Source of the DNA: an uncultured bacterium
GTDB lineage: Bacteria > Omnitrophota > Omnitrophia > Omnitrophales > Aquincolibacteriaceae
Assembly: GCA_964482725.1 (NCBI GenBank)
Contig: CAYZYT010000005.1
Location: 24,133-88,132, forward strand
Length of the DNA stretch: 64,000 nucleotides
Direction of reading: 5' to 3'
In this document: in pieces, positions 3,283-64,000 of the stretch
Position numbering within the stretch: the stretch's first letter is position 1
Layout of the letters: the number at the start of each line of letters is the position of its first letter
Program-made: the position numbers and the translations under genes
The notes under the pieces: model-generated
Database searches by the model: none
What the model was told of the DNA's origin: nothing
Seen by the model: only the letters and a program-made list of their open reading frames with translations

Positions 3283-3315
3283 TTTCGTAGCCCCTCGGAT
3301 CAAAAAGTCTCCGAT

Positions 3316-38409: not shown

Positions 38410-39222
38410 TTAATAGGCCCTGATCCGACGTTTGAATTCGTTCCAGGGAAAAAATTTTCCGGGGCATTCCGTCGCAGCGCCAGGCACATCGCGATGCCCG
38501 ACAACGTTCTGATCGGGAATGTTATAAAAGCTCTGAAGGGTCACAACCAAAAAAACCAACGAGTCATACATCTTATCGGGAAGACCCGTCTCGCTATAAT
38601 TGCCCACGACACATATCCCGATCGCTTTCTTGTTCCAATCCCCCTGCTTGGTATGCGCCCCATCCGATTGCTTCAGCCAGCGAGGACCGACTTCGATCTG
38701 CCCCATCGCCTTTCCGCGGGTGCCGTTATCGATCAGAAAATCATATCCCATTCCGTTATCCCATCCTCGCTGAAGATGAAGTTGGTCGATTTTGAAGGCG
38801 CTGCCTTGGTCGGTTGCCGTGTGATGGATCACGACATGCGTCCACCTCGTGGTCGGATAAAGCGGGATGTTTGCCCGAGGGCCCCGCGTATTCGGGATCA
38901 AAAGCTTCATCCCCTTTTTGAGCTGCGTCTTGCTCGTTAAATGATTGACGCGCATGATCGTTGCCATATCCACACTGTAGATCGTTGAGATGCGCCAGAG
39001 AGTCTCGTAGGGTCCAACTTCATGATAGATGTCGTGCAGAGCTCCCGACGGAGCCGGAAGCACCGTCGTGATGGCAGAGACCGGTCGCGGAGACAGATAC
39101 GTCGTCGTACGACTCGGAGAGGATGAAGCGCAGCCAGAAAGAAAGCTCGCACCTGCTAAAAGGACGATCACCGCCCAGGCTGGCATGCTCGGAGATCTGC
39201 TTGCGGCTATTTGTGGAAACAC
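38410..39222 (-). CDS. N-acetylmuramoyl-L-alanine amidase (amidase_2/PGRP fold) with LysM domain, secreted
   Basis: Signal peptide, LysM (YHEVGPYETLWRISTIYSVDMATIMRVNHL...GMKLLIP), then amidase_2 blocks (VVIHHTAT..., GYDFLID, GHRDV...ECPG). Confidence 0.82.
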   Translation of the reverse strand: MFPQIAASRSPSMPAWAVIVLLAGASFLSGCASSSPSRTTTYLSPRPVSAITTVLPAPSGALHDIYHEVGPYETLWRISTIYSVDMATIMRVNHLTSKTQLKKGMKLLIPNTRGPRANIPLYPTTRWTHVVIHHTATDQGSAFKIDQLHLQRGWDNGMGYDFLIDNGTRGKAMGQIEVGPRWLKQSDGAHTKQGDWNKKAIGICVVGNYSETGLPDKMYDSLVFLVVTLQSFYNIPDQNVVGHRDVPGAATECPGKFFPWNEFKRRIRAY

Positions 39223-49341: not shown

Positions 49342-52300
49342 TCACGCTGCGGTGGCAAAAACAAGATTATTGTCGTAACTTCGCTGGAGGGCATTGACCA
49401 AATTCTCGGCAACCCTCCAAAAACCATCCGAATCCTTATTCACCCCCACAAAACGGGCCGTTTCCCCGCCGCCAAGGGCCCAAAGAAGCGCAACCGCCAG
49501 AGACCCGCTTTTCTGACCCTGAGTTTTAAAGAAAGAAACCCTCTTTCTCAGGCGCTGGACCAGTTCCGTGGAGGGAAGGATCTTCTTTGAAAGATGAATA
49601 CTCGGCGCATTCGGCCGGTCAAAGCGGCTCTGAGCTCCCGCCAAGTCTTGACCGGTCCTCGTCACGCGATCAAGCTTCAAAAGAGCCCCGAGCTCTTTAT
49701 CCTGCACCTGCCCGCGCTCATTATAAACCACCACATGAAGCGCTTTATTCGATAGCGCCACGATCAAGTATTCCTGTTTCTGAGCCAGAGAAAGATTCTG
49801 AAAATCTTCCGCATCCACAAATACCGTCGCCGGCTGAACGCCCATACGAACATTCCTCACCATCCGGTCGCCGAGATCCCCCGATATCACCCTCTCAGAA
49901 ACCACCGCTACCCGAGGCTGAAGACTTGCGATAAATGATTCAGACCCCATCTTTTGAGTAGTGGCTTGCAACCTCTTTTGGGCAACATCTTCCCCTTTCG
50001 AATCCCGCACCTCGGAGCGGTCCGCGGGTAATGCCTTGAGATAATTCTCAACGTCACTCAGGATCTTACGATAATCTTCCCGGGCGATCACCTCCGGACG
50101 CTGGGACAGGGCCTCACGGAACTCACGCGTAAGTACGCCTAATTCCCGAGCTTCCTCAGTACTTCCCCTTTCGATCACAAAATCCGCCTGTTCCCGGGTG
50201 GGATCCACAAAAGATTTCTCACCCGCCGCCACATTATCCCAAAGCGCCAGAGTCCGGAATGGATCGCTGAACTTTCTGACCTCAACATCCCGGAAAAGTC
50301 TCCGCATGAACCGGATCTGCCACGGCGTGTCGAGAAAGATCTTCAAAACCGGCACGTCAGGCCCTAAGGCAGACATCACTCTCGGATGCAGTGAATGAAG
50401 TCCTTCCACCCCAATAATGTCGCGACCTCCCAACTGAGAGGTCCTGGCAGGCTCCGCAACGCCAAAAGTACTGGCTGGGATCACCGCCGTACCGTCCCTA
50501 TTCAGCTTTCGGATCGTTTCCGTCATCACGGGAAGATTGTAAGCATCGATATGATCAAAATCAGGCTTGCCGTTTCGAAGAGGACATTCATCCTCCGGCT
50601 TAAAATAGCGATCTTCGGGGACCCATTCAATCTTCCGACCCTGCCCCGCCATCAGACGATTGAACTCATCGAGCATCCATGTTTTTCCGGTAGCGGAAGG
50701 TCCCCCCACAAGCAGAACCGCTCTCGCCGGCAACTGTCGAAGTCTTTCAGAAACAACTCCGCTCAGAACGTCCCAAGTCCCACGGCCCCTTTTCTCGGCC
50801 AGATCTTTCCTGACTTGTGTTTCCATCTGATCGACAATCCCGGAGATGGTCTGGTCGGAGCCGTTTACGATCACGACCGCGTCCGATGGCTGGCGAAGCG
50901 GGGCAAAGGTGCGCCGGCGATCGAGATCATCGCGCTGCTGTATCTTGGCCATAACATCCTCGATCGAAACAGCCTGGGAACCTTCTTTCGCCCGGAACTG
51001 TTCCGCGCGGCGCCTGGCCCGCACTTCGACGGGAGAATCCAAATAAAATTTGGTACCCGTGGCATCCGGGAATACTTCGGTACCCATCTGTCGGCCATCC
51101 ACGACGGCATTATATTTCTCACCGGTCTCGCGGATCTTTTGAAGGACAAATATCTGAACGGCTTTATATTGCGAGACTTCCGCCACCACGCGCGTCACTT
51201 CCTGAGAACGGATCACATCCGTCACGCTCGCGCGGTCCAGAAGAACCTGCAAATCGCTCCCTTTCGCATCGAGAGATACGCTCGTCTTTTCAAGAACCGC
51301 CGTCACGGCAGCTTCGTTCAGCGGATCGATCCCTTCCCGGATCATTTTGTAGGCGATGGCTCTAAAAATGACGCCCGAGTCCACGTACAGGTATCCGAGG
51401 CGCCGCGCCAATTCCAGCCCGGCGGTTCCCTTCCCCGATCCTGACGGCCCGTCTATGGTCACCACAACGGTGCTCAGCGGATTCATTTTAAGAGCGAGCG
51501 TTTTCCCGGCCTCGCGCACGTCCGAACGGTTTTGAGCGCGCACCGCAGGACGGGAGCTAACAAACTTTTGAATCTCGGCCACATCCTTCGCCGGGGCGTT
51601 ACTCACGCCGATATAGACGTCGAACTTCCCGTTCGGAACCTTTCTCATCTGCTCTATTTTCCGGTCGATCCACACACCGGGCACCCACTTGGGGAGTACG
51701 GTCCGCTTCTTGAAAAACTGCCTGTATTCTTGTTTGGCGAGATCTTGAACCGTTTTCGAAAGCAGGAATTCCTTGATTCCCTCCAGGGAAAATCTCACAA
51801 AGACATCTTTATTGTCCTCGATCTCCACCGACGGCATGCTATGGGGGCCGTTTTTCATGAATGCCACGATCGCCCGGTTGACATAGCCATCATCCATTTC
51901 TCCAAAATAGACAATATTACGGATCTTCTTGTACTTCGGGTTCTCGACCAGGACACGCATGTGCGGGTATTTTGCCGAATCCAACCCCCCGATCACTTGT
52001 TGATAAAGTTTGCGGAGGCTTAAAAAGAACTTGAACTCGAAAACCGTATTTTTACTCACGGCGTCCCATTCCTTCCCCGAGGAATCCCGGACAAATTCAT
52101 GGATCGCCCGGATCACGCCCACGTTGATCTTTTTCAGGGACTTACTCCGTTTGATGACCTCCCGGTAAACCCCGGAGATCTCCCCCGCCAGGCCCACCAT
52201 CTTGTCGCGAGGATTTCTCGGCCCCAGCATCGCCTCGACCATATCCGCGACCGACTCGAAGACAGCGGCATGAACCACCTTCGCCCCAGGACCGTTGAAG

Positions 52301-55300
52301 GCAAGCAGCTCACGGATCTTTTTTTCTAATGCCGCGAAGGAGAACTTCCATTCCCGGAATATCGAGATCACGGCCAGAGCGTCATTGAGCTCAGCCGCAC
52401 TGAGCTCGATCTTCGGCCGCTTGGCCGGACGGGCCGCATCGTCCGGTTTGCCGGTCCGATCGTTTCTAAGAACAAACTGACGGAGCTCCCGGCTCAAGGA
52501 CTTCTGACCTTTCAGGTAGGGCTCAAACGACTCCTGGACCTTACGGATCGTGTTGAGAACGGACTGCCTTTGTTCAGGGGCCGCCGTCGCCCCGTCGCCG
52601 AGGATCCTCGCCCCGTCTCTCCGGTAGAACCATCCCAGAAAATCCACCAAAAAATATCCGGGAAGTATATCGATCTCTGCGTCCGTCAAGCCTTGTTTGC
52701 CCGCGGTCCTCTGATAAACCGACAAGGCCCGGAGGAGATACTGCTCCAAATGATCCGTCACATAACCCTGCCGTGGATGCCCTGTCCGGAAAACAACCGA
52801 TGTAAAATCTTCCATTCTGTGACCGAATCGGACATCTTCCCAATCGGTAATTGCGCGTATCCTCCCGGCAGCATCAAAAAAGCAATTGGCGATATTCATA
52901 TCGGAGTTAATAGGCTTTTTCGGAATTTTCTTCGAGAGCGCCCAAACCCCGGGGAAAACATCATCCAAAACCGAGAGGATCGTCCGCGCCTCATCCGGAG
53001 CATAGGCTTGAAGAATACGCTCGCGTCCGTTCGTCCGGCTTTCCTCCATTTGCTCATAATTCCGGCTGCGGGTCCACCGGCCAAGCCCCGCCCAACGTTC
53101 CTCGGACACGTCCAGGGTGGCTGCATGGCTCGAGGCAAGCCATCGAACCACTTCATCGAGCATGGGGGGGGAAGCCTCTTCCCGGTATACATTTTTCAAT
53201 CCCTCGATCCAATTCTCGACCACAAAATATTCTTTGAGATGCGTCGACTGATTAGAAATGCTGAAAATGAGATTAGCGGGTTCACTCATTCCAAAACGAA
53301 AAAGCGCCGGAATAGGGATCCCCTTACGCATATTCCGGTGGATGATATCCGCGATAAACAGGCTCTCCCGTTCTTCGTTCGCCGAACTCAACCGGGAAAG
53401 CTTCTTCAGACAAAATAGCCCCTGTTCCGTTTTAAGGATCGGGATATCTCTTCCGTCATGCCTCTTGAACCGAACGGATTTTAGTGCACCAAGCCCGTAT
53501 TCCGTGAACAGCCGGGCGACATCCTCGTCCGTCCACCCCGCGAAGGCCTCCCTCGCCCTGGGAATTCCAAGAAGCGCGGACGGACTCACCTCCGTCTTGT
53601 CCCCCGGACCTCCACGCATCTCGGAGCGAACCACAAGCGAGTCCCGAGTAGTACTTGAATCAACAGAATTCAAGTGCATCTCGGAGCGAGCCTCACGCGA
53701 GTCCCGAGAAGTCTTTGGCGCAACAGGCGTCAAAGGCATCTCGGAGCGAGCAACGGTGATGAAAATTGCGGCGGTGCGCAGGTAGCGGCCTTGTGAGGAA
53801 GGTAAGGCATAGTCACCATTCGCCCATATCTTTGCATTGCCTCCATGGTCAAGAAGCATCGCTTGACTAAGGCCATATTTCGAGGCTAATGCCGCGCTTT
53901 CAACCAACGTGGAACCCTTACGACCGGATTTCCCCGAGATCCCAAGAACCACAAGTTCCCCGCCGGGAGTCAAGCCCATAAGGGTCCGCGGATATATCCC
54001 CGGTTTGAAAAATATTTTTATCTTCCCTTCCTCGAATTTGAACTGCCCTCGCTCCGTAATTTCACCGTCATTTTCGAGATACCCGCTATCCTTCAACGCC
54101 TTTCGGAGAACGGCTTCCGGAACCGCAACCTCCGTGGTCACTCGATCCGTTCCCTCTTTGAAGCTGAGAGCAACGGTCAGATCCATCCGCACCGGACTTT
54201 TCCAGGCGTTCTGGGCCAACGCATAACCGTTCCGGGACATTTGAGAAACATCAAAATAGATTTCTTCCTTGGAAGCCAACTTCCCCGTTGATGAATCGGG
54301 AAGGTCTCTGGCCAGGATTTTGGGTAAGGTATAAACATGCCGCAGATCTTGAAATTGGGGAATGATCGATTCGATGTCTTCCCGCGGATGACCTCTTCCG
54401 TCCAGTAAGAACTGTCCGAAGGTCGCGTAGTCGATATCTTTTTGAATCTCCCCCCCATTCGCGAAAGCATGGATCGTTCCGTTATTTCCGGCCCGGTAAG
54501 AAACATCCTCCATCAAAAACGTCCCGTTCTTCCGGAGGATCAACGAAGAATACGGATGAGCCCGGATATCCTCGCCGACCGGATAAAAGAGCTTCCCGTG
54601 TGCGAAGGTCACGAATCCTTGATTGGCGAATAAACTCGAATTGTCCACGGCAGCCACCACGGTCTGAGACGGATGGCTTGCTTCAAAACGCCGGATCATC
54701 GCGTCATCCGTTTCGATCTTTTCATGGACTGCGGCATTATCGGTTATCAAAGAACCATCGGCCTCGCGAAAAAAAGCGGTTTCCGTGTTCCGGTCAATGC
54801 CGAATCTTCCCTGAAGTTCCTCCTGGATGGCCACATGAACGCCCCTGCCTGAGGATGGCGAAATTCGAAAGGAAACCACTTCCGAAGACCCCGCCTGAAA
54901 TTGAACCGTCTCTTTTGCGACGGGGAGATACCTCACCTCGGAGCGCCGGCTCGAAGCAGTTAACGCCGTTTTTACTTCTGAGCTCAGAGACTTTTCTCCG
55001 TTAAAGTACGGCGCAAATTGCTTTTGAATTTCCTTGATCGCCCGGAGGATCATCGTCCTCTGGTTCGGGGTCGCTTCTCTTCCTTGCCCCGTCACTCCCT
55101 TCAGATCTTTCACATAAAACCAGCCCAGAAAATCCACGAGAAAGAACCCGGGAAGGCTGTCGATCTCTTCATCCGTCAGCCGCCGGTCTCCCGCGGCCTC
55201 CTGGTAGGCTTGCAGGATTTGGATCAGATCCCGCTCCAGATGTCCGACCACATAACCTTGGCGAGGTCGTCCGGTGCGAAAAAGGATCGAGGTGAAATCT

Positions 55301-58300
55301 TCGATCCGGTAACCCAACCTCGAAGCTTCCCAATCCGTGATCTCGCGGATCTTTCCGTCAGCGTCAAAAAAACAGTTCGCGAAATTAAAATCGGAGCTGA
55401 TGGGCTTGAGCGGAAGTTTCCGGAGCAACGAGGAAACCTTGGGAAGGGCCTGGTCCAAGACGGACAATATCGTCTCGCTATCTTCTTCCGAATAAAATCG
55501 TTTGATCTGCTCCCGGTCCTCGACGCGGCCCCGCTCCATATCCCGGAGCTGCCATTCACGGGTCCACCGCTCCAGCCCCTTCCAATCCGAATCGGTCACA
55601 TCCTCCGTCGCGGCGTGGATCCGATACAGCCATCGAGCGGCCTCTTGCAACATTTCGGGCGTCGCCTCTTCGCGATGGACGCTTGGGTATTCCGTGATCC
55701 ATCTTTCAACCATAAAGTATTCTTGGGTGTGCAACTCGGTGTCCGTGATCCTGAAGAATAAATTTTCGCGCTTTTCCTCTCCAAGACGATAAAGCGCCGG
55801 AATGGGGGTTCCCTTCTGTTTATTCCGATGAACCGTATCCGCGATAAAAAGCATCTGCCTTTCCCTGTCGATCGGATCGAAAGTCGTGATCTTTTTGAGG
55901 CCAAAGAACCCACGAGTCGTTTCAAGAATGGGAATACTTTTATCATTATGCGCTCTCAATTGAACCGCCTTTAGCTCACCGAGCCCGTATTCTTTAAAAA
56001 GCCTCGCGATGTCCTCATCCGCCCATCCCTGGAAGGCTTCCCTCGCCCCGGGAATTCCAAGAAGCACGGACTGACTCACTTCCGTCTTGTCCCCCGGACT
56101 TTTGGCGGCAGCCTCGCGCAGCGGGTATTCATTCATAGAAAGGTTGTGATGGGCGAAAATATTCATCGAATGGACTAGCTGTAATTTCTCTGCGCGTATC
56201 CTTCCAAAAGTATCCTCCCGATGCCTTTTCACCCATTCAAGAAGCTGCGCTCTTTCGTCACGCGTCAATTCCCTGATAGGAGAATAAAGCGTGATCACTC
56301 GCCGTTCCGGCGTTTTTCCGTCAAAAAGGATCGTCTCGGCCTGTATCCGGCCGTCCTCGGGATCCACCGTGACTCCCTGAACCCAAATATCAAAAGGTTC
56401 CCTTGCCTTGGCCATTTGTCCGGTTTTCTCCTGAGCATCTTGGATCTTTTCATCTGAGAAAGGTTGCTTCTGTAGGTGGAATGTCTCCAAAGTAAGGTGG
56501 TAGGCCTCGCGCGGAAAAATAAAGAATTTCTGGGCGAAGGGTTGTTTTGAAAATTCATCGGTAAGTCGGATCAACCCGCGTACGGTCTCATGACCTTCTT
56601 CGGGGTACACAGCAGCGGACAAACTGTAAAGAACCGCTGGGACACCTTCCCGGTTGGCGACACGCTCCCAGAGATTGATCTTCAGCCCCGGAACTTTTCT
56701 GAATTCAACGTATCTGGAATAGGACTCTTCCGTATAAAGTCGTCCCGCGGCTATCGCCTGCTCGGCCTTCAGGAAAGACGGCTCAAAAACAGTCCGCCGC
56801 GCCTCATCCAGGATCGTTTGTTCTTCCGGTGTCCTTACCTCGGAGCGGACTATCGGGTCGGATGGATCGGGCCTCGCATCATCATAAAGGGAACGCACAT
56901 CGGCCCAAAATTCCTTGCCGTCCCATTTGAACGGCATTCCGTAAATAACGAACCGCTGATCCTTCGTCAGTGCCGGCGGCATCTGTGCCTTGACCGCTGC
57001 CAGATCACAAATGTCGGGGATCTGATCTATGGCCGCTTCGATCTTTTTGTTGATGACGTCGGCCGCATACCAAAATTCGACAGGGTATTTTCTCAGGCGG
57101 AGATTACTGTTAAAGACCGCTTCCCCGCCTGGCGCAAGCAGTGAGATCTGGCCCAGGAGCCGCAACCATTTAGCCCATCGCTTGTAGGCATCATCCCCCT
57201 TAGCAAGTCGCGTCGAAACCATCATCAGCGAATTCAGGATATCGATCGAATCGCGCCACTGTCCGCGAAGCTTCTCTTCTTCCGCCCCAAAAATCGCCCC
57301 GATAGTCTTATTAAGATCTGAAACCTCTTCCGGGGTCAGGTCCTGATCCGAATTCATGGAGGATTTCGCCAGCTTTTCAAACCGGTACTGGTCATAATTC
57401 CGGAGAGACCGGTCCCGCGCTTCCGAATCGAGCCACGTCACCACCGTCGCGAGCCTTGCCGGGTAATACACCATACTGTCCGGAAGCACACTCGCCGCAT
57501 CCGCGATATTGTGCAGCAACAACTTCTCAAAACCTTTTTCATCAAGCCCTTCCTTGAATTTTGTGTAACGCAACTCTCCGAGATACAGCGATCCTGCACT
57601 CATGTGGCGTCGGATAAGCGAAGAAACAGCCCGAGCCCTCTGCGAAGACATGAGAAGATCGCTCTGGAAGAAAGATTCTGCATAATCCGCCCCGCTTGCC
57701 TCATGCCCCACATCCGCGTTGCCAAAGATGTATCCAAAATCATGGGCTTTGATCTCAAGCCACATTTCCGTTTTTTCATCCAGCGTTAATGCATCATAAA
57801 CGGACTTCACCCGTCCAAGATCTTTCCGGTACCCATCCTTATCAGGTGAGGTGGTTCCGTGCTTTAAGCGGTTGAGAAAGTAATCAAAATTGCCGGTGGT
57901 AAGGGCGCGAAAGAAACGTTCAACACGTATCATGTGCCGTGCTTTCTCGGGATTAGCTTCCAACGGTTTCTCTTCATTTCCCTCTTTGATCTTCCGGAAC
58001 GGTTCGCTGGCCGAAAGATCGAATTTCTCAACCTCGAGATCCGGAAGGTAAGTATTAACGATCTTCATCGTCGCATCGCTGACAGGCTCCGGGCCCTTAA
58101 GCCCTGAAAGGGCCTCAAGGATCTCATCGATAGTGATCTTGACATAATCCTTCTGGCCCGCCGACTTCGTCTGAGAGCGTTCCGCTTCCGCCTCGGCAAG
58201 ATAGCCTTCTAACATTTTTGCTACATCCCGCGCCTCGGAGCGAACGGACAGAAGACCTGCGCCTTGCGCCTCCCGAGAAACATTTTCCACTTCAGCCGCA

Positions 58301-61300
58301 TCCGATTCCGGAGAAACCATGTCGTTATAAACATCAGAAAGCACTACGCTGGCTTGCTGAGCGGTTATGGGCAAAAGCAGAGCAGGCGATTTTTCAGTCA
58401 CTGAATGTTCTTGAACCGCTTTTAAAAAAGAAGAACCGATAGCTTTCAGATTGGCCGAAAAAGCAAAACGCTCTTCGGCTGATTTTCTGGCCATCGCCCC
58501 CATTTGATCCCTCTCCGCCTCATCACCCGCAAGTTGACCGATCCTCCGCGCCAGATCCCGGTAATTTCCACGAGGAATCACAAAACCGGTGACACCCTCG
58601 ACCAAAGTTTCAGGCAGCCCTCCTCCGTCAGAAACGATGGCAGGAACACCGCTGGCCTGCGCCTCCACCGGGACGAGACCGAAGGGTTCAGCTCCCAACG
58701 TGGGATAGACCACAAGATACGATGCGTCATACCAGCGCCTCATTTGTTCGACTGACTGGCCTCCCACAAAAAGGACTTCCACCTTGAGGCTCTTCGCAAG
58801 ATCCTGCAGCTTGGCAAGATCATTTTGCAATGGATTGTGCTCGGGCCCCAAAACAACAAAAGACAATTGAGAGCTCCGTGCGGGATCCTGTCTCAATAGT
58901 TCTGCGGCAGCACGGAGGGTAACCTCCTGGCCCTTGCGGGGCTCGATACGGCTCGGGTGAAGGATGATTTTCTTGCCCGAAAGGCCATACTGCTTACGAA
59001 GCGCCTCAACAGACATACGATCTTCGGCATTCCGTTCTTGAAGAAAATAGCTCATGTCAGAAATAGGATATAGGCGCTCTACTTTTTCACTGCCAAGGTC
59101 TGAAAAAATCTTCTGAAAGGCATTACTGCATGTCACCGCCGCATCCGAGTTCCTTACCAAATAGGCAACCCCTTCCGTAATGGCGCCGCCATGGAAAAAG
59201 TAATGAGAAGGGATCCGTAACTGGTGAGAAAATGAAAGGGCGGTTTTCAAAAGGATAAACTGCGCTTTTGAGCTATTCAGAGCGATCAGATCGATCGGCA
59301 TCCGTCTCTGGATCTCAGCGAGAAGCCTTTCCAAATGGATGCTTACTTCCCCGTCCGTGAGAGGAATGTTGTCAGGACTCCTTTTAGGAATCCCATGGAG
59401 CACAAGGCGGTTCCCGCTTTTGGGGGCCTCAAACAATGTTTCCGATGGCTCTGTCCCCGCACCCAGGTACAGAAGCTCGAACGTAAATCCTTTTTCTGTT
59501 CTCAAGAGCGTCTTGATCAAATTCTGCTGGTAAGTCTGTATCCCACCTATTTTAAGCTGCTGAGGACTGATGGAAAGTACATGCCGCACGCCCTTCGCAC
59601 CAAGCTCACCTCCGGGCAAAGACGGAACGGTCCCCTCGTTCAATTCACGGAAGAAACGCGCCCAGTTTTCCTTCAAAAGCGCCTCACGTTGCTTTTCCGA
59701 CAGGACCGATTTATCAGAAACAGTTGGTGACCCAGCTGCCAATAGTCGCATCTCGGAGCGAGCTTCAAGCGAGTCCCGAGTAGTACTTGAATCAACAGGA
59801 TTCAAGGGCATCTCGGAGCGAGCCTCACGCGAGTCCCGAGAAGTACTTGAATCAACAGAATTCAAATGCATCTCGGAGCGGACAGAAGAAGTAGCAGTCG
59901 GTGCCGTTGCAGGTTCCGCTAAAACCTCTGTCGGAAAATTCGTGATTTTATAAAGAGCGTAGGGCTTCCCTTCAAAGAGAAAGGATTCAACGAGAGCGCC
60001 CTGCAGCGGGTACGCTTTGGGCTCATCTTTGCGGGATTTCGGCCAGGGCTTATAATTAAAACGTTTCACGGCAGGGGGCACTTTCTCAGCCTGCAGTGCA
60101 ATAAAGAAACCTTTTTTTGCTTTAAACAAATAAGATTCCTCATTGCGAGCCCAGGCAATCGGCCGAAAGCTCTCCAATCCGACCAGCAGGGGTTCTCCCT
60201 GAACATGCAAGCGTGCAAGCCTGCTACCTTTCAGAAGGGCTGCGATGTGTTCTCCATCCGAACCCGTCAGGAGGTTGCCAAGGACCCCCCAAAGAGAGAC
60301 TTGAAATATCATAAGCGAAACACCCGGGAAAAAACCCAGATACCACAAAATGAAGGATACGCAAGCAACGCTAAGTTCCATCAAAGGACCCGATACAGCA
60401 ATCCAAATACGTTGGATGGGGAGAAGTCTAAAATCGTCAGGCGAGTACGTGGTAACAAATCCCGGAAAAAGGCTATAAACAATATCCTGGACAGTCGCTT
60501 GCCCGTCAGCCTTCCCTCTTTTTTGAATTATCTTCGCCGAGATAAAATGACCTGCCTCATGCGCCGCTACTGCGCTAATGGCAATCAAGGCAAAAACAAA
60601 TCCCAAAAAAGGCATGTCGATCACGAATGCGCCATAAATACTCTTATAAGATTCAATCCGTTTTTTGACCGCACGACTTGGCTGTCTCGAAAGAAAAGGG
60701 CTGTACTCGGAAATGAACAATTCGCGGATAACAAAAGCTAGACTGAATGCGGTGAACATCACTATTCCGGGCATGCGATCGAGAACAAAAAAAGCCCCTG
60801 TCACGGAAAGAACAGCACGGAGAAGGTTGAGTCTCCGGTTAAAGGTTGCCACCTTTTTCCAGTCGAACACGCCGTGTCGCTTAAGATAAGATTCGTACTG
60901 ACTGACAAAAAAATGGATCGCATCCGAAAATATTTTATTACTGAAAACCACAAGACCCCAGGCAAGCCCGAATAGTACCGTCACAAAACCAAAACCGATA
61001 ACCCTTTGCCCAAACTTCATCGGGTTAACAAAATAGTCACGCAGAGCTTTTCCGATCGGCACGCGCTTTGCAGCCTGCGTGACGCTCTCCCCCCCGGAGG
61101 CATTTCGAACCACCGGCTGGGCTTGAGAAGGCAATGAAAATACTGGATCGGGTACCGGAAGGCGCCGGATCGAGAAATTGTCCGCAAGGTGGACCAGCTC
61201 CGCTTTCTCCGCACGGAACAAGCCCATCACCCGATCGCGATTCCGGATAACCCAGCTTTGCACCTGGCTTGTCTCATCCGCCGTCAAGGGCTCGAGGGGC

Positions 61301-63669
61301 GTCATCAGTGTCATGGCCTGAATGCGGGGCGCCCAGCGCCACGAAGAAAATGCGTGAACGCGGATCCTGCCGGTTTCTTCATCGATCGCGACCCCTGCCA
61401 CGTCAATATCAAAGGGCTGCTTATCCTTGAGAAATGCCTCCGTCTCTTCCCGTCCCGTTGTCACTTCCGAATCGCTAAAAGGCGTTTTCCGGGAATTACG
61501 GACGGGCCATAAGGTGAGATGGATCGCCTCTGAAGGAGTCCTGAAAAATTTCGAGGCCGCGAAAGGCAACTCTCTGTAGAAATCATCCTGGAGGCGGGTC
61601 ATCTCCCTGCTGACAGCTCCAGCATGATCCGGAGCAACCAGCAAGGACAAGCTGTAGAAAGGCGCCAGTGTCCCGTCGGATGCAAAAAACCGTTCGCGGG
61701 CACTCACCCCCCACTGGCCCGGAATTGAAAGCGCTTCTTCCGTATAAGAAAAACCAAGACCTTTTTCGAACGCTTCATCAAAAGCCTTCCCCCTCAGTTC
61801 CGAACGAGGTTTTACGATCCCGCCTTCTACAGACTCCGGCTGAACTTGATCGCCTGGGTTAAGGCCGGCAAGCCGGCGCTCGATCAGTTGCGGGTCTGAA
61901 ATATTTCCCATGGCCTCGACGGATGAAGTGATGGCGCGAAGCGTCGATTGAGCGGAAGCATCCTCGCCCGCAACGGCGGCCGAATAGAAAATGCTGGGAG
62001 GTTTATTGGCATGGGCCGCGAGAAACGGCGTTTCGAAGGTCCGATGGCCTTCCGTCATGAGCTGCTTATAGAAATCTTGGTGTCTTTTGTTCGCGGAAGT
62101 AATCCTGGGAGAAATGACAACATAGGAGATCCCTTTCTCCCGCAACATTTCTTTAATACTGTTGGCGTGGAAGCCGCCGTACACCAGCACTGCTGGTGCG
62201 GGACTCGGGGAACGGCTAACGGTGAACGATTGAGACTTTTCGTTCTGCGCTATGCTTTCCACGTCCCCCTTCGTAATTTCGTTTCCCGTTCCCCGTTCCA
62301 CGTTTCCCGCTTCTATGTATTTATCCATCGCTCCCGAGATCGTGCCATCCCGCTGCAGGGCAACTTCGTAGAACCGGACCGCCTCCTGGATATGGCGCTC
62401 CCATTCTCTGGACAAAACCAGGGGTCGGCGCGTCAGCGACACAATAAAATCTGCCAATCTCCGTGTGTCCAACCGACGCAGCGTCGTTTGGACCGCTTCA
62501 TATTCCGCCTGGGTCAGTTCGATCCGGTTAAGCCTCTTGAGAAGGCCCAGCCCCTGATAATAAGTGAATATTTCCCGATCTCTTTCATTTTGAAGTAAGG
62601 CCACCGAGACATTCTTTTCCAACCGCGTGATCTCTTCAAAGACCCCTTTGAAATCCAGGGCATTCAGCTGCTGGTTCAATTTCGGGTCATGAGTCGTCTC
62701 GGCCATGAGAAGCATAGAAATGGCAGGATATTCTTTAGCGAAATCCCAAGCAGAGCGCGATTCAGGGCTTTTCAAATAAAACGCCTGAAGCTCTTTTAAA
62801 TAATTAAGCAGGGGCAGCTTCCCTTCCGAAAAAAGCTTCCTCGCTTTCATCCAGGTCTTTAGGTCTTTGGGAAAGTATTGATTCGCAAGCGTGGTGATCT
62901 GGCCCCAAAGTTCCGCGAGATCTTCTTCGATGTCTTTGCGGCTCTGGGAGGAATCCTGATAGCATTTGATGTTCTCACCGTAGAGCTTGAGATCCTCAAC
63001 GCCGATCAACTCAAAATCCTTCGGGATGACCTGAGACTTGAGACTTGAGACTAGAGACTTGCCGTCAAAACTTTGGTCTTTTTTACTAGAGTCTCCGGTC
63101 TCTGGTCTCTGGTCTAATCGGCTTCGCCGATTAATATGCGCATACTCCGCGCCGCCGATGCGGAGCTGGTCCATCATAAAATACGAGACCTTTTCCTTGG
63201 TCGCGGGATCTTTGATAAATCCAAAGAACTTGTCGGTGGGAACCGGGCCTTCGTAGCCTTCTTCAAAGACGGTCCGGACGCCGTCCCGCTCCACCAGAAG
63301 CCGGATGATCTTGGCAATATTCACCTGCGCTTCGAGCGAGTCGTGGGCGTCTTGGATGAGCACGATCCTTTGATCGTGCCGGGAAATGGCTAACGATGAA
63401 CGGTTAACGATTTCGTTATTACGTTCCCCATTCCCCGTTCCACGTTCCCCGCGGTAGACTTCGTCTACCGAACCAAGTTCTTTCGGAATAGAAAAGGAAG
63501 CGGGAGCAACGGGTTCGATAACTTTGGAAGATTGACCGGCAATGGCCTGGGGGGCATAGCGGGAGACATCAAAAAGGACAAAAGCCAGGATGACAAAAAT
63601 CGCCGTAGCCTTTCGAAATAAAAGGCCCCTTTGACAGGTTTTACAAGACGATTCCGCATCGTAAAACAT
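49342..63669 (-). CDS. giant 4775-aa membrane multidomain protein fusing phosphoesterase, kinase, glycosyltransferase and glycosidase domains behind a conserved N-terminal module
   Basis: Single uninterrupted ORF in the track. N-terminal hydrophobic anchor or signal. Domain landmarks were located by back-translating motifs to the DNA; see the sub-features below. Confidence 0.85.
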   Translation of the reverse strand: MFYDAESSCKTCQRGLLFRKATAIFVILAFVLFDVSRYAPQAIAGQSSKVIEPVAPASFSIPKELGSVDEVYRGERGTGNGERNNEIVNRSSLAISRHDQRIVLIQDAHDSLEAQVNIAKIIRLLVERDGVRTVFEEGYEGPVPTDKFFGFIKDPATKEKVSYFMMDQLRIGGAEYAHINRRSRLDQRPETGDSSKKDQSFDGKSLVSSLKSQVIPKDFELIGVEDLKLYGENIKCYQDSSQSRKDIEEDLAELWGQITTLANQYFPKDLKTWMKARKLFSEGKLPLLNYLKELQAFYLKSPESRSAWDFAKEYPAISMLLMAETTHDPKLNQQLNALDFKGVFEEITRLEKNVSVALLQNERDREIFTYYQGLGLLKRLNRIELTQAEYEAVQTTLRRLDTRRLADFIVSLTRRPLVLSREWERHIQEAVRFYEVALQRDGTISGAMDKYIEAGNVERGTGNEITKGDVESIAQNEKSQSFTVSRSPSPAPAVLVYGGFHANSIKEMLREKGISYVVISPRITSANKRHQDFYKQLMTEGHRTFETPFLAAHANKPPSIFYSAAVAGEDASAQSTLRAITSSVEAMGNISDPQLIERRLAGLNPGDQVQPESVEGGIVKPRSELRGKAFDEAFEKGLGFSYTEEALSIPGQWGVSARERFFASDGTLAPFYSLSLLVAPDHAGAVSREMTRLQDDFYRELPFAASKFFRTPSEAIHLTLWPVRNSRKTPFSDSEVTTGREETEAFLKDKQPFDIDVAGVAIDEETGRIRVHAFSSWRWAPRIQAMTLMTPLEPLTADETSQVQSWVIRNRDRVMGLFRAEKAELVHLADNFSIRRLPVPDPVFSLPSQAQPVVRNASGGESVTQAAKRVPIGKALRDYFVNPMKFGQRVIGFGFVTVLFGLAWGLVVFSNKIFSDAIHFFVSQYESYLKRHGVFDWKKVATFNRRLNLLRAVLSVTGAFFVLDRMPGIVMFTAFSLAFVIRELFISEYSPFLSRQPSRAVKKRIESYKSIYGAFVIDMPFLGFVFALIAISAVAAHEAGHFISAKIIQKRGKADGQATVQDIVYSLFPGFVTTYSPDDFRLLPIQRIWIAVSGPLMELSVACVSFILWYLGFFPGVSLMIFQVSLWGVLGNLLTGSDGEHIAALLKGSRLARLHVQGEPLLVGLESFRPIAWARNEESYLFKAKKGFFIALQAEKVPPAVKRFNYKPWPKSRKDEPKAYPLQGALVESFLFEGKPYALYKITNFPTEVLAEPATAPTATSSVRSEMHLNSVDSSTSRDSREARSEMPLNPVDSSTTRDSLEARSEMRLLAAGSPTVSDKSVLSEKQREALLKENWARFFRELNEGTVPSLPGGELGAKGVRHVLSISPQQLKIGGIQTYQQNLIKTLLRTEKGFTFELLYLGAGTEPSETLFEAPKSGNRLVLHGIPKRSPDNIPLTDGEVSIHLERLLAEIQRRMPIDLIALNSSKAQFILLKTALSFSHQLRIPSHYFFHGGAITEGVAYLVRNSDAAVTCSNAFQKIFSDLGSEKVERLYPISDMSYFLQERNAEDRMSVEALRKQYGLSGKKIILHPSRIEPRKGQEVTLRAAAELLRQDPARSSQLSFVVLGPEHNPLQNDLAKLQDLAKSLKVEVLFVGGQSVEQMRRWYDASYLVVYPTLGAEPFGLVPVEAQASGVPAIVSDGGGLPETLVEGVTGFVIPRGNYRDLARRIGQLAGDEAERDQMGAMARKSAEERFAFSANLKAIGSSFLKAVQEHSVTEKSPALLLPITAQQASVVLSDVYNDMVSPESDAAEVENVSREAQGAGLLSVRSEARDVAKMLEGYLAEAEAERSQTKSAGQKDYVKITIDEILEALSGLKGPEPVSDATMKIVNTYLPDLEVEKFDLSASEPFRKIKEGNEEKPLEANPEKARHMIRVERFFRALTTGNFDYFLNRLKHGTTSPDKDGYRKDLGRVKSVYDALTLDEKTEMWLEIKAHDFGYIFGNADVGHEASGADYAESFFQSDLLMSSQRARAVSSLIRRHMSAGSLYLGELRYTKFKEGLDEKGFEKLLLHNIADAASVLPDSMVYYPARLATVVTWLDSEARDRSLRNYDQYRFEKLAKSSMNSDQDLTPEEVSDLNKTIGAIFGAEEEKLRGQWRDSIDILNSLMMVSTRLAKGDDAYKRWAKWLRLLGQISLLAPGGEAVFNSNLRLRKYPVEFWYAADVINKKIEAAIDQIPDICDLAAVKAQMPPALTKDQRFVIYGMPFKWDGKEFWADVRSLYDDARPDPSDPIVRSEVRTPEEQTILDEARRTVFEPSFLKAEQAIAAGRLYTEESYSRYVEFRKVPGLKINLWERVANREGVPAVLYSLSAAVYPEEGHETVRGLIRLTDEFSKQPFAQKFFIFPREAYHLTLETFHLQKQPFSDEKIQDAQEKTGQMAKAREPFDIWVQGVTVDPEDGRIQAETILFDGKTPERRVITLYSPIRELTRDERAQLLEWVKRHREDTFGRIRAEKLQLVHSMNIFAHHNLSMNEYPLREAAAKSPGDKTEVSQSVLLGIPGAREAFQGWADEDIARLFKEYGLGELKAVQLRAHNDKSIPILETTRGFFGLKKITTFDPIDRERQMLFIADTVHRNKQKGTPIPALYRLGEEKRENLFFRITDTELHTQEYFMVERWITEYPSVHREEATPEMLQEAARWLYRIHAATEDVTDSDWKGLERWTREWQLRDMERGRVEDREQIKRFYSEEDSETILSVLDQALPKVSSLLRKLPLKPISSDFNFANCFFDADGKIREITDWEASRLGYRIEDFTSILFRTGRPRQGYVVGHLERDLIQILQAYQEAAGDRRLTDEEIDSLPGFFLVDFLGWFYVKDLKGVTGQGREATPNQRTMILRAIKEIQKQFAPYFNGEKSLSSEVKTALTASSRRSEVRYLPVAKETVQFQAGSSEVVSFRISPSSGRGVHVAIQEELQGRFGIDRNTETAFFREADGSLITDNAAVHEKIETDDAMIRRFEASHPSQTVVAAVDNSSLFANQGFVTFAHGKLFYPVGEDIRAHPYSSLILRKNGTFLMEDVSYRAGNNGTIHAFANGGEIQKDIDYATFGQFLLDGRGHPREDIESIIPQFQDLRHVYTLPKILARDLPDSSTGKLASKEEIYFDVSQMSRNGYALAQNAWKSPVRMDLTVALSFKEGTDRVTTEVAVPEAVLRKALKDSGYLENDGEITERGQFKFEEGKIKIFFKPGIYPRTLMGLTPGGELVVLGISGKSGRKGSTLVESAALASKYGLSQAMLLDHGGNAKIWANGDYALPSSQGRYLRTAAIFITVARSEMPLTPVAPKTSRDSREARSEMHLNSVDSSTTRDSLVVRSEMRGGPGDKTEVSPSALLGIPRAREAFAGWTDEDVARLFTEYGLGALKSVRFKRHDGRDIPILKTEQGLFCLKKLSRLSSANEERESLFIADIIHRNMRKGIPIPALFRFGMSEPANLIFSISNQSTHLKEYFVVENWIEGLKNVYREEASPPMLDEVVRWLASSHAATLDVSEERWAGLGRWTRSRNYEQMEESRTNGRERILQAYAPDEARTILSVLDDVFPGVWALSKKIPKKPINSDMNIANCFFDAAGRIRAITDWEDVRFGHRMEDFTSVVFRTGHPRQGYVTDHLEQYLLRALSVYQRTAGKQGLTDAEIDILPGYFLVDFLGWFYRRDGARILGDGATAAPEQRQSVLNTIRKVQESFEPYLKGQKSLSRELRQFVLRNDRTGKPDDAARPAKRPKIELSAAELNDALAVISIFREWKFSFAALEKKIRELLAFNGPGAKVVHAAVFESVADMVEAMLGPRNPRDKMVGLAGEISGVYREVIKRSKSLKKINVGVIRAIHEFVRDSSGKEWDAVSKNTVFEFKFFLSLRKLYQQVIGGLDSAKYPHMRVLVENPKYKKIRNIVYFGEMDDGYVNRAIVAFMKNGPHSMPSVEIEDNKDVFVRFSLEGIKEFLLSKTVQDLAKQEYRQFFKKRTVLPKWVPGVWIDRKIEQMRKVPNGKFDVYIGVSNAPAKDVAEIQKFVSSRPAVRAQNRSDVREAGKTLALKMNPLSTVVVTIDGPSGSGKGTAGLELARRLGYLYVDSGVIFRAIAYKMIREGIDPLNEAAVTAVLEKTSVSLDAKGSDLQVLLDRASVTDVIRSQEVTRVVAEVSQYKAVQIFVLQKIRETGEKYNAVVDGRQMGTEVFPDATGTKFYLDSPVEVRARRRAEQFRAKEGSQAVSIEDVMAKIQQRDDLDRRRTFAPLRQPSDAVVIVNGSDQTISGIVDQMETQVRKDLAEKRGRGTWDVLSGVVSERLRQLPARAVLLVGGPSATGKTWMLDEFNRLMAGQGRKIEWVPEDRYFKPEDECPLRNGKPDFDHIDAYNLPVMTETIRKLNRDGTAVIPASTFGVAEPARTSQLGGRDIIGVEGLHSLHPRVMSALGPDVPVLKIFLDTPWQIRFMRRLFRDVEVRKFSDPFRTLALWDNVAAGEKSFVDPTREQADFVIERGSTEEARELGVLTREFREALSQRPEVIAREDYRKILSDVENYLKALPADRSEVRDSKGEDVAQKRLQATTQKMGSESFIASLQPRVAVVSERVISGDLGDRMVRNVRMGVQPATVFVDAEDFQNLSLAQKQEYLIVALSNKALHVVVYNERGQVQDKELGALLKLDRVTRTGQDLAGAQSRFDRPNAPSIHLSKKILPSTELVQRLRKRVSFFKTQGQKSGSLAVALLWALGGGETARFVGVNKDSDGFWRVAENLVNALQRSYDNNLVFATAA
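50175..50745 (-). other. giant protein 2: uridine-kinase / phosphoribulokinase-family domain
   Basis: VLLVGGPSATGKTW P-loop at 50690..50730; IGVEGLHSL..., FLDTPWQIRFMRRLFRDVEVR and ADFVIERG (50175..50192) line up with Udk blocks. Confidence 0.6.
50830..51480 (-). other. giant protein 2: cytidylate kinase domain
   Basis: VVVTIDGPSGSGKGTAG at 51425..51470, then YLDSG, VVDGRQ and the lid region. A complete Cmk-like unit. Confidence 0.65.
52450..53590 (-). other. giant protein 2: APH/CotS-like kinase-fold module, copy 2 (paralogous to copy 1)
   Basis: SDMNIANCFFDAAGRIRAITDWEDVRFG at 52800..52925, ending ILPGYFLVDFLGWFY. Roughly 50% identical to copy 1 over about 360 aa. Confidence 0.5.
53600..53770. 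repeat. 63-bp tandem coding repeats (2.5 copies; 21-aa unit RSEMxLNxVDSSTxRDS(R/L)EA), cluster 2
   Basis: CATCTCGGAGCGAGCCTCACGCGAGTCCCGAGAAGT... repeated. More than 90% identical to cluster 1 at 59745..59890 over about 110 nt. Confidence 0.75.
53780..54850 (-). other. giant protein 2: phosphodiester-glycosidase-like domain
   Basis: RTLMGLTPGGELVVLGISGKSGRKGSTLVESAALASKYGLSQAMLLDHGGNAKIW at 53815..53990, the characteristic C-terminal block of this family. Confidence 0.5.
55000..56090 (-). other. giant protein 2: APH/CotS-like kinase-fold module, copy 1
   Basis: SDFNFANCFFDADGKIREITDWEASRLG (Brenner-type D..N, then the DWE/DFE motif) at about 55290..55400. Ends with LPGFFLVDFLGWFY. Confidence 0.5.
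56130..56810 (-). other. giant protein 2: 2H phosphoesterase domain, copy 2 (both HxT motifs present: GHETV and YHLTL)
   Basis: GHETVRGL at 56572..56600 and AYHLTLETF at 56465..56525. Confidence 0.55.
57480..57790 (-). other. giant protein 2: HD-type phosphohydrolase-like domain
   Basis: LEIKAHDFGYIFGNADVGHE ... LLLHNIADAASV gives an H..HD..H..D arrangement. Confidence 0.35.
58400..59600 (-). other. giant protein 2: GT4-family glycosyltransferase domain
   Basis: EPFGLVPVEAQASGVPAIVSDGGGLPE (58621..58700) with an upstream Rossmann half starting at VRHVLSIS (59570..59620). Confidence 0.6.
59745..59890. repeat. 63-bp tandem coding repeats, cluster 1
   Basis: Same unit as cluster 2, in direct orientation and about 6 kb away within the same ORF. 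Confidence 0.75.
60250..61020 (-). other. giant protein 2: multi-pass membrane segment with HEAGH (M50/site-2-protease-like)
   Basis: Helices from MKFGQRVIGFGFVTVLFGL (60981..61020), through AISAVAAHEAGHFISAK (60530..60585), to VLGNLLTGSDG (60250..60300). Confidence 0.45.
61290..61800 (-). other. giant protein 2: 2H phosphoesterase-like domain, copy 1 (first HxT motif degenerate, second intact as HLTL)
   Basis: EAIHLTLWPV at 61495..61525; the upstream position reads DHAG instead of HxT/S. Confidence 0.4.
62000..63669 (-). other. giant protein 2: N-terminal module shared with giant protein 1
   Basis: IVLIQDAH at 63335..63375 and LVYGGFHANSIKEMLREKGISYVVISPRI at 62105..62200. A 19-nt stretch GCGTCTTGGATGAGCACGA is identical in both giant genes (63343..63361 and 34761..34779). 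Confidence 0.5.
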
Positions 63670-63870
63670 ACTTTTTAAAACCTCTTAGTTTTAGATTTCC
63701 TCAATACACGAGGATACTAAAAATGTAACACCTCATGCGCGATTGTCAATGAGGCGTGGGGTAAAAGTCTCTCCTGATTTCGGGGAACGAGAACCTAGGG
63801 GACAGACAATCAATGGACGCCCTCCCCTGTGTGAAGGTTAAAGTTTACGAAGAACTTCATTACAGCCCGA

Positions 63871-64000
63871 GGAACAAAGATTTCCACTACGCTGATTGCA
63901 CTTGCGCCCAACGCGCAAGTACTACACCGTGTGGAACAAAGATTTCCACTACGCTGATTGCCCGATGGCCTGAGCGGCCTCGATCGCAGCGCCAAGCATC
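63871..64000. CRISPR. candidate CRISPR array start: two identical 29-bp direct repeats, one 33-bp spacer and part of a second, truncated by the window end
   Basis: GGAACAAAGATTTCCACTACGCTGATTGC at 63871..63899 and again at 63933..63961. Spacer 1 (63900..63932) is not related to spacer 2. An AT-rich leader-like region lies upstream at 63670..63870. Confidence 0.35.

Follow-up and report, generated by a model that had tools for sequence, protein, structure and literature searches.

The locus and the protein family

The 64,000-nucleotide (nt) window analysed here, the whole stretch between positions 24,133 and 88,132 of contig CAYZYT010000005.1 from an uncultured bacterium of the phylum Omnitrophota (assembly GCA_964482725.1), carries a giant open reading frame (ORF), ORF A, whose 4775 codons run uninterrupted on the minus strand from 49342 to 63669. 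Both the ORF listing and the translation give these limits, exactly as they had been drawn in an initial annotation of the window. ORF A is one ordinary representative of a family of Omnitrophota proteins that is very large and uncharacterised, and it falls within an already published phenomenon, that of long multi-enzyme proteins in this phylum. The family is unnamed and is defined in this analysis by arrays of cassettes that are enclosed by a conserved N-terminal module (N-module) and a conserved C-terminal module (C-module), and separated by a linker motif, RSExR. As family criterion we used the pattern R-[SA]-[ED]-x-R, placed between domain-sized cassettes at about 2 per 1000 amino acids (aa).

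The first 600 aa of ORF A match Omnitrophota proteins only. A profile built for the N-module found this module, which the initial annotation had noticed as a conserved stretch of roughly 560 aa, throughout the family, with matches in 8,907 cluster representatives (50%-identity clusters), 4,809 of them at E<=1e-30, and always at the N-terminus. The N-module of ORF A is itself the top match of the profile (P0065) and is 44-55% identical to those of the best genomic relatives, and its C-module is 52-73% identical to those of relatives. At the genome level, 171 loci were confirmed by tblastn with one genome per species, several paralogues being present per genome, and 80 of these loci were kept for analysis; they are titled Omnitrophota, Omnitrophica or uncultured bacterium, apart from one titled 'Planctomycetales'. 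The layout, constant across the family, consists of a Sec signal peptide, the ~560-aa N-module, variable cargo cassettes, and a C-module of ~200 aa that ends in [AS]A. The anchor or signal that had been proposed at the N-terminus of ORF A is a signal-like segment by hydrophobicity, and the same Sec-type N-terminus is found in 112 of 118 representatives, where the residues preceding the hydrophobic core carry a net charge of +3.1 on average and ..YA often follows the core. The C-module is conserved, preceded by the motif and closed by an amphipathic helix, and the [AS]A-COOH tail is present in 101 of 127 representatives, as well as in ORF A (..VFATAA) and in a second family member of the window, ORF B (..VDQAA). 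Complete members among these 127 representatives measure 1,061-6,720 aa. Taken together, these features describe a modular, Omnitrophota-specific family that is predicted to be exported through Sec. Family genes often stand in tandem: the ORFs upstream of the members at L010, L056, L003, L050, L063, L027 and L017 end in ..[AS]A, and at L002 and L005 a B-type member lies directly downstream of an A-type member. The layout of N-module, RSExR and C-module was not found in the literature searched, and searches on Omnitrophota polyproteins, on TIKI/Ere domains and on the RSExR motif returned nothing relevant.

For a gene of this size, with internal repeats, an assembly chimera, i.e. a mis-joined ORF formed at those repeats, has to be considered. 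Two copies of a 134-nt linker repeat lie 6.1 kb apart in ORF A, linker repeat 1 containing a 60-nt tandem repeat (2.2 copies), and the two APH kinase modules are 71-75% identical at the DNA level, which could in principle mislead an assembler. However, the linker repeats are merely 90% identical as DNA, and at such divergence (90%; 71-75%) a collapse during assembly is unlikely. The reading frame stays unbroken over 14.3 kb, the GC content is even over the whole gene, and for an ORF of this length in DNA of 52% GC a chance origin is impossible. At its two ends ORF A has the signal peptide and N-module, and the C-module and AA tail, that are canonical for the family, and it is as long as complete members typically are. 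The public collection contains an identical protein (NCBI contig, 161,004 bp). Given its canonical family termini and repeats that are too divergent to collapse, we treat ORF A as a genuine, full-length family member, and regard a chimeric origin as highly improbable.

A linker motif that delimits shuffled cassettes

The pattern R-[SA]-[ED]-x-R occurs 8 times in ORF A (1.7 per thousand aa, kaa) vs 0.64 expected, and 11 times in ORF B vs 0.54 expected, and is absent from the 19 other ORFs of the window (~9.7 kaa). Across 82 family proteins, RSE.R is the sole strongly enriched pattern outside the N-module, with 409 copies vs 6.9 expected; V, L, M, A and I are the residues seen in the fourth place, and its flanks are unconstrained, save for small residues right after the motif and a disorder-type composition. 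An independent set of 127 representatives holds 878 motif copies in 409 kaa, and the motif is absent from 392 flanking non-family ORFs (147 kaa), those flanking ORFs that are rich in it being neighbouring family members. Motifs are spaced at a median of 268 aa, a domain-sized interval, with 98 of 428 spacings below 100 aa, and pairs or triplets 10-50 aa apart are common. Almost every member carries a copy directly after the N-module. All 8 motifs of ORF A lie outside Pfam matches, and the two that were modelled fall in linkers of low predicted confidence (pLDDT).

The codons of the motif vary between copies and the flanking nucleotides carry no information, so that selection acts on the peptide; a role as a DNA-level recombination site was rejected on the same two observations. 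A synonymous bias exists at the motif in ORFs A and B and the 80 loci, the first Arg being CGY in 81% of cases vs a background of 41%, and the Ser being TCN in 94% vs 69%, with TCC favoured. This bias may stem from S/A toggling, common linker descent, or a translational or RNA-level effect.

RSExR delimits the units of shuffling within the family. What ORF A has in common with its closest relatives is confined to the N-module (44-55%) and the C-module (52-69%), and the cargo of these relatives is entirely different, while single cassettes of ORF A recur elsewhere in the family, in alignments whose ends coincide with motifs. The HD-like cassette is found in 5 other family proteins (6 matches) at other positions and with 29-68% identity, e.g. 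68% at aa 536-1031 of P0079 and 54% at aa 5003-5483 of P0162. The latter protein also carries the Udk-family cassette (66% identity, aa 6248-6546) and the APH cassette (53%), and the GT4 cassette returns with 48% identity at aa 3129-3639 of L009/P0082. On a larger scale, among 357 cargo homology blocks from 155 members, 47% of blocks start and 43% end <=30 aa from a motif, vs 13% and 12% in randomly shifted control blocks, and the median distance from block edge to motif is 35 aa (starts) and 51 aa (ends) vs ~145 aa after shifting.

The cargo pool is broad. In 148 randomly sampled cassettes, 80 Pfam families were matched, most cassettes having no match, and the sample includes methyltransferases, GHKL ATPases, epimerases, pyridoxal phosphate (PLP) enzymes, GNATs, HD, APH, WD40 and FHA domains. 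With relatives that share head and tail only, and with 80 Pfam families among the cassettes, the enzyme set of ORF A is one draw from a pool: its nucleotide and phosphoester cargo is one set among many, and is not to be read as a conserved pathway. The initial annotation had seen in ORF A a single pathway, or machine, around a membrane-embedded metalloprotease-like core. No relative keeps the same cassette set, the nearest relatives carry entirely different cargo, and the cassettes recur singly elsewhere; furthermore, the conserved parts of the family are the N-module and the C-module, and 58 of 101 complete members have no internal transmembrane (TM)-like segment, so that the M50-like membrane segment is itself a cassette. 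A local nucleotide and sugar-phosphate theme may exist within ORF A alone.

Domain content of ORF A

Curated Pfam and NCBIfam cut-offs were used to separate confirmed from weak domain calls (Table 1), and most of the calls made in the initial annotation held in this search. The cytidylate kinase (Cmk) is bona fide, with a full-length match to PF02224 at aa 4070-4287 (186.5 bits, E 6.5e-55), and with 188.1 bits for TIGR00017 vs a cut-off of 135.55, over profile positions 3-213 of 217. The glycosyltransferase (GT4), the two APH kinases and the phosphodiester glycosidase (NAGPA) all score above curated cut-offs as well: Glycos_transf_1 matches aa 1555-1729 with 111 bits (5.6e-32), and the GT4-conflict model matches the same cassette with 39.7 bits vs 26 (E 4e-10); APH modules 1 and 2, which are 55% identical as proteins, reach 35.9 (8.7e-9) and 28.9 (1.2e-6) bits vs 23.2; and PF09992 gives 52.4 bits vs 25 (E 9.2e-14). 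The proposed uridine-kinase-family domain belongs to the PRK family (PF00485, 48.4 bits vs 22, E 1.3e-12), but stays below the equivalog cut-offs of the uridine kinase models (TIGR00235, 73.8 vs 220.3 bits; NF004018, 77.3 vs 180), and is hence a Udk-family kinase and not a proven Udk. In ORF A, enzymes that are usually small and soluble (Cmk, the Udk-family kinase, GT4, the APH kinases and NAGPA) are genuinely fused into a single polypeptide that bears a signal and several hydrophobic segments.

Other calls are weaker. HEAGH (aa 1037-1041) does lie inside a hydrophobic segment, which also contains NLLTGSDGEH (aa 1132-1141), a shortened variant of the NxxPxxxLDG-type motif, but the Pfam score for Peptidase_M50 (25.4 bits, E=1e-5) falls short of its cut-off of 27.2. 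The two 2H-like modules are true paralogues (39% identity, E=2e-36), but only module 2 has Pfam matches, all sub-threshold (2H-phosphodiest 0.0025, LigT_PEase 0.038, 2_5_RNA_ligase2 0.045), and no match below E=0.1 was found for module 1. Each module contains one HLTL, the second H-x-T/S motif being absent from both (H-L-A, H-S-M), and the 2H profile gave chance-level matches alone when compared with the PDB. For the HD-like cassette, the pattern H..HD..H..H..H..D is invariant in 6 cassettes, but no Pfam or PDB match was obtained with either the single sequence or a 6-sequence profile, and both the Pfam search on the six members and a word-based homologue search were blank. Two further stretches went without a match, aa 3761-4047 (Pfam, and PDB below E 0.1) and aa 1146-1261 (Pfam).

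Table 1. Features of ORF A, its upstream region and ORF B, with window coordinates
Feature	Residues (aa)	Window position	Strand	Basis or remark
Upstream expression signals		63670..63760	minus	AAGAGG Shine-Dalgarno ~9 nt 5' of ATG, TTGACA-N17-TACATT; sequence reading
Signal peptide, Sec-type	1-45	63535..63669	minus	Hydrophobicity; basic n-region, h-core AIFVILAFVLF, c-region ..YAPQAIA|G; putative cleavage
N-module	46-621	61807..63534	minus	TIKI/erythromycin-esterase/ChaN-like alpha/beta core with large helical insertion
Linker motif 1, RSELR	622-626	61792..61806	minus	
2H-like module 1	627-880	61030..61791	minus	Paralogue of module 2; one HLTL
Hydrophobic multi-pass M50/S2P-like segment	881-1145	60235..61029	minus	~5 TM-like stretches (Kyte-Doolittle)
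Segment without Pfam match	1146-1261	59887..60234	minus	
Linker repeat 1	1262-1308	59746..59886	minus	20-aa units RSEM[HP]L..VDSST.RDS..
Strict motif 2, RSEMR		59746-59760	minus	Closes linker repeat 1
GT4 glycosyltransferase cassette	1309-1809	58243..59745	minus	Pfam
Linker motif 3, RSEAR	1810-1814	58228..58242	minus	
HD-like cassette	1815-2274	56848..58227	minus	Recurrent cassette, invariant His/Asp pattern, no profile match
Linker motif 4, RSEVR	2275-2279	56833..56847	minus	
2H-like module 2	2280-2500	56170..56832	minus	Sub-threshold Pfam matches
APH/CotS-fold kinase module 1	2501-2908	54946..56169	minus	Shares cassette with 2H-like module 2
Linker motif 5, RSEVR	2909-2913	54931..54945	minus	
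NAGPA phosphodiester-glycosidase cassette	2914-3305	53755..54930	minus	PF09992
Linker repeat 2	3306-3352	53614..53754	minus	Closes with strict motif 6, RSEMR (53614-53628)
APH/CotS-fold kinase module 2	3353-3760	52390..53613	minus	Pfam APH
Segment without Pfam or PDB match	3761-4047	51529..52389	minus	
Linker motif 7, RSDVR	4048-4052	51514..51528	minus	
Cytidylate kinase domain	4053-4300	50770..51513	minus	PF02224, TIGR00017
PRK/uridine-kinase-family P-loop kinase	4301-4550	50020..50769	minus	Shares cassette with Cmk
Linker motif 8, RSEVR	4551-4555	50005..50019	minus	Disordered in C-module model
C-module and stop codon	4556-4775	49342..50004	minus	Rossmann-like alpha/beta, C-terminal helix, end ..NLVFATAA-COOH
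ORF B, second family member	5729 aa in length	17925..35114	minus	Signal peptide, divergent N-module, C-module ending ..QAA

The conserved terminal modules

The conserved residues of the N-module are D107-x-H109, E137, R170, E175/H178 and GGFH (~aa 497-500), and in the structure model the invariant ones stand at strand ends. Of 192 members, 188 retain the set formed by D107-x-H109, E137 and GGFH, as does the divergent B-type module. In fold comparisons the module matched EreC (8.9), ChaN (8.8), HopBA1 (8.1), RRSP (7.8) and a TraB protein (7.6), and the alpha/beta fold with a parallel beta-sheet core that is common to Ere, ChaN, HopBA1 and RRSP is seen in it. TIKI-type hydrolases have a catalytic set of 2His/2Glu and a conserved basic residue, the relevant positions being E3900-x-H3902, E3930 and H4030 in RRSP, and H85 and E113 in Bcr135 (PMC6254334). 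In the N-module, D107-x-H109 is the counterpart of E3900-x-H3902 in RRSP, and E137 follows H109 by exactly 28 residues, the same distance as from H3902 to E3930 and from H85 to E113; the conserved Arg and GGFH come after these. As its residues reproduce the 2His/2Glu spacing, and are kept in 188 of 192 members, the N-module is probably an active hydrolase, perhaps a peptidase or an esterase, predicted to belong to the TIKI/Ere superfamily. Its acid-x-His, Glu at +28, basic residue and G-x-x-H are those of the TIKI, Ere, ChaN and TraB-PrgY proteins; it differs from the TIKI superfamily by an Asp in place of the first Glu and by a helical insertion of ~250 aa. No profile match to TraB_PrgY_gumN, Erythro_esteras or Cofac_haem_bdg was found. 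The superfamily includes site-specific endopeptidases (Tiki, RRSP).

Two copies of a 41-nt repeat (88% identity; window 62270-62310 and 63412-63452) lie inside the N-module region and encode low-complexity inserts of the 'ERGTGNGERNNE' type, which are located in two disordered loops of the module. Strings resembling 'GTGNGERG' are also seen in linkers of relatives, e.g. in the L001 protein.

The C-module was modelled with a pLDDT of 81.1 as a generic Rossmann-like alpha/beta domain. The matches to it in the fold search were all of the generic Rossmann/HAD kind, none of them diagnostic, and it does not conserve the DxD motif of HAD proteins, so that we make no functional call for this module.

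ORF B and the genomic neighbourhood

ORF B has an N-module that is 26% identical to that of ORF A and that carries the same DAH, E at +28 and GGFH; a Pfam search of ORF B gave no match at E<=0.01. It also contains two soluble HExxH motifs.

ORF A is surrounded by genes with housekeeping roles (NadE, Ogt, ArgS, MiaA, HflX, Tal-Pgi, an amidase, transporters, PFOR). The genes between ORFs A and B comprise one for a protein with LysM and Amidase_2 (N-acetylmuramoyl-L-alanine amidase) domains and a lipoprotein-like N-terminus (window 38410-39222, minus strand), together with a Tal-Pgi fusion, HflX, MiaA, ArgS, Ogt, NadE and an SNF transporter. Across the 80 loci, the sole recurrent neighbour cluster was that of generic ABC ATPases. 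An ABC exporter beside the closest relatives of ORF A was considered as part of a type I secretion system (T1SS) and rejected, since it is msbA-like and adjoins lpxB. At L001, L004 and L009 the family gene is immediately preceded by the msbA-like ABC exporter gene, lpxB and a gene of the Gfo/Idh/MocA type, and the window ends before the position equivalent to the msbA/lpxB genes. This conserved synteny with lipid A genes indicates a diderm, lipopolysaccharide-bearing envelope.

Directly upstream of ORF A, TTGACA-N17-TACATT is a sigma-70-like candidate promoter. A 39-nt direct repeat (90% identity, two copies, 62-nt spacing, minus-strand core CAATCAGCGTAGTGGAAATCTTTGTTCC) is found at window 63861-63961, a short way upstream of ORF A, and runs towards the end of the window (64000); with two copies visible, the pair may belong to the border of a CRISPR-like array or to some other spaced repeat. 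No tRNA, tmRNA or Rfam element was found in the 64-kb window.

Discussion

The reading that we favour, with a probability of about 0.4, is that ORF A and its relatives are Sec-exported, polyprotein-like cassette arrays, in which the RSExR linkers serve as proteolytic recognition sites. Sec would thread the array out of the cytoplasm, and in ORF A the ~5 hydrophobic helices of the M50-like cassette would hold the protein in the membrane. The exposed RSExR linkers would then be recognised for chain cutting, most simply after the second Arg, a placement suggested by the small residue favoured at the next position, and cutting would release or loosen single enzyme cassettes by the logic of viral polyproteins and MARTX toxins. 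The N-module, always present and adjacent to the first motif, would be the most economical protease candidate, at least for its own C-terminal junction. The cargo of ORF A would in this case be a group of enzymes for nucleotides and sugar phosphates that works at the envelope or a host-cell interface, and not one obligate pathway. A more far-reaching form of this idea is that RSExR is the processing code of a phylum-wide polyprotein system, in which the N-module, or an Arg-specific protease acting in trans, cuts thousands of arrays and releases their cassettes outside the producer cytoplasm, possibly into hosts; to this we give less credence, and consider it a speculative possibility.

Several observations weigh against processing at RSExR. 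The main obstacle is a compartment paradox, as the signal peptide predicts export, yet most of the cargo needs ATP, S-adenosylmethionine (SAM) or nucleoside diphosphate (NDP)-sugars; this paradox obstructs every model, and not just that of processing. In ORF A, moreover, 5 hydrophobic segments, an odd number, would leave the N-module in the periplasm but 6 of the 8 motifs on the cytoplasmic side, together with the C-module. Among a few exceptional lineages, the members at L032 and L057 have an intact N-module and zero RSExR, P0115 has an intact N-module and almost no RSExR, and motif-less members in general keep intact N-module catalytic residues; no co-variation was seen between loss of the motif and loss of these residues. 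Other strings occur in linkers, 'RPEARSE' eight times in P0115 and 'SGFGA' five times in L057, which hints at lineage-specific switching of the linker code. No consistently adjacent protease, chaperone or secretion gene was seen over the 80 loci. With regard to the N-module, the top Foldseek matches, EreC and Bcr135, are not significant (E=0.05), no Pfam match (E<=1) or PDB sequence match (profile, E<=10) was obtained, and the TIKI superfamily also holds esterases, a haem-binding protein and non-enzymes.

In an alternative reading the chain stays whole. The proteins could be uncleaved giant enzyme scaffolds, tethered to the membrane or the cell surface, whose RSExR is a docking site, e.g. for a chaperone, secretion component, scaffold partner or modifying enzyme, or simply stabilises an extended linker. 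A linear motif of five sharply defined residues, placed in disordered linkers, suits a binding site no less than a cleavage site, motifs in pairs and triplets (98 of 428 spacings <100 aa) would raise avidity, no dedicated protease is encoded nearby, and the published view of Omnitrophota giants is that of membrane-anchored coats or adhesins (PMC10066038). A binding partner, however, would be expected to co-occur or to be encoded nearby, and none was seen; furthermore, a small residue right after the second Arg is typical of protease sites, as is a motif that directly follows a hydrolase-like N-module in almost every member. We regard such a scaffold as a tentative alternative. The initial suggestion of one coherent membrane-tethered machine with an M50-like core, processing nucleotides, RNA ends or nucleotide-sugar-linked polymers, draws on the relatedness of the cargo, with Cmk and the Udk-family kinase in one cassette, a 2H-like and an APH module in another, and GT4 and NAGPA besides, and with 5 hydrophobic segments the domains that depend on nucleoside triphosphates could all face the cytoplasm. 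We nevertheless find it improbable, in view of a domain combination that is kept in no relative, an M50-like segment that is absent from most members and lies below its Pfam cut-off, 2H and HD assignments that are unconfirmed, and cassettes that occur individually in other contexts.

Processing at RSExR is also compatible with an array of effectors for a host or prey cell, similar to MARTX or large clostridial toxins, which would be passed to the target cell after Sec export, and in which the cassettes that depend on ATP, SAM or NDP-sugars would act in the target cytoplasm after they have been cut apart, while the hydrophobic segment would help membrane insertion. An array of this kind would resolve the compartment paradox, with signal peptides in 112 of 118 representatives, no internal TM-like segment in 58 of 101 members, and cargo of a cytoplasmic type. 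Fast cargo turnover between close relatives and many paralogues per genome recall conflict systems, the GT4 domain scores above the cut-off of the model for 'GT4 in conflict systems', the effectors RRSP and HopBA1 have the fold of the N-module, and Omnitrophota have been reported as host-dependent or predatory (PMC10066038). All of this evidence is circumstantial; neither machinery for delivery nor a domain for translocation was identified, the score of Cmk is that of a genuine housekeeping-type equivalog, and the genes around ORF A are housekeeping genes. We consider an effector array rather unlikely, if somewhat less so than the single machine.

The function of the giant and long multi-enzyme ORFs of Omnitrophota is an acknowledged open question. 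A five-residue boundary motif offers an objective way to split such proteins for structure prediction and annotation, and explains how their cargo can be reshuffled; together with a hydrolase-like head and a conserved tail, it also supplies concrete reagents and sites with which processing can be tested by proteomics and biochemistry. If the chain is indeed processed at the motif, the family would constitute a large unrecognised bacterial polyprotein system; if it is not, RSExR is still the defining signature of ~9,000 protein clusters. Should the processing code hold true, it would be the first defined cleavage code for long and giant Omnitrophota proteins, and the system would be a bacterial counterpart of viral polyproteins, based on a protease fold not previously known for such a role.

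Comparison with known systems

Long and giant multi-enzyme proteins that bear signal peptides or TM helices are a published hallmark of Omnitrophota (bioRxiv 10.1101/2023.11.21.568195; bioRxiv 10.64898/2026.06.07.730766; PMC10066038), and the architecture of ORF A, itself part of an Omnitrophota-only family, is consequently, contrary to the initial annotation, not of an undescribed kind. West-Roberts et al. 2023 described 'Archaeovorins' of >30 kaa with mixed enzymes, for which cleavage was suspected and the cleavage points were unknown; in this main giant-protein paper, the absence of cleavage-point information blocked even a computational dissection (bioRxiv 10.1101/2023.11.21.568195). Nielsen & Lui 2026 treated proteins of at least 10 kaa, and distinguished a 'multi-enzyme metabolic' class and signal-peptide-plus-TM topologies (bioRxiv 10.64898/2026.06.07.730766). 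The N-module fold, RSExR, and the C-module with its [AS]A tail are unmentioned in either study. ORF A resembles these giants in phylum, in the length of the ORF, in its signal peptide and/or TM helices, in poor conservation between genomes and in the open question of cleavage, and likewise in a cargo mosaic of glycosyltransferases, kinases, methyltransferases, HD and GHKL domains amid much unannotated sequence. With the Archaeovorins it shares an Omnitrophota origin, TM helices and mixed enzyme cargo, but at 4,775 aa vs >30,000 aa, and without SecA_DEAD, C39 or S8 domains (Pfam E<=0.01), it is not an Archaeovorin by the published criteria.

Outside the phylum, short sequences between domain-sized units are known from polyproteins and from toxins. 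Gingipain precursors are cut at Arg/Lys between adhesin domains. Viral and gingipain polyproteins are similar to ORF A in that a long precursor is composed of domain-sized units with a short repeated recognition sequence between them, and differ in that the cargo of ORF A consists of metabolic-type enzymes, and not of replication or adhesin modules, and in that the protease-substrate pair is putative here. Polymorphic toxins have demarcation motifs as well, 'VENN' in CdiA and 'PxxxxDPxGL' in Rhs proteins, and each carries one variable C-terminal toxin and is accompanied by an immunity gene, with a boundary that is conserved as DNA and permits recombination. In both cases a short peptide motif bounds exchangeable modules and close relatives differ in cargo, but the Omnitrophota family has many internal cassettes, no flanking nucleotide conservation and no immunity-like neighbours.

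MARTX toxins have conserved ends and a variable central array of effector enzymes that is reshuffled between strains, and the TIKI fold of the N-module is also that of RRSP, one of these effectors (PMC6254334). Proteases cut MARTX toxins at the short linkers between effectors, whereas cleavage in ORF A is hypothetical, and the TIKI-like domain is a cargo effector there and a fixed N-terminal module here. ORF A has neither RTX/glycine-rich repeats nor a C80 cysteine protease domain (Pfam), and carries a Sec signal peptide in place of the C-terminal T1SS signal of MARTX. Although none of the MARTX membership features tested was thus found in ORF A, the logic of these toxins would, by analogy, be the nearest functional counterpart of the family described here.

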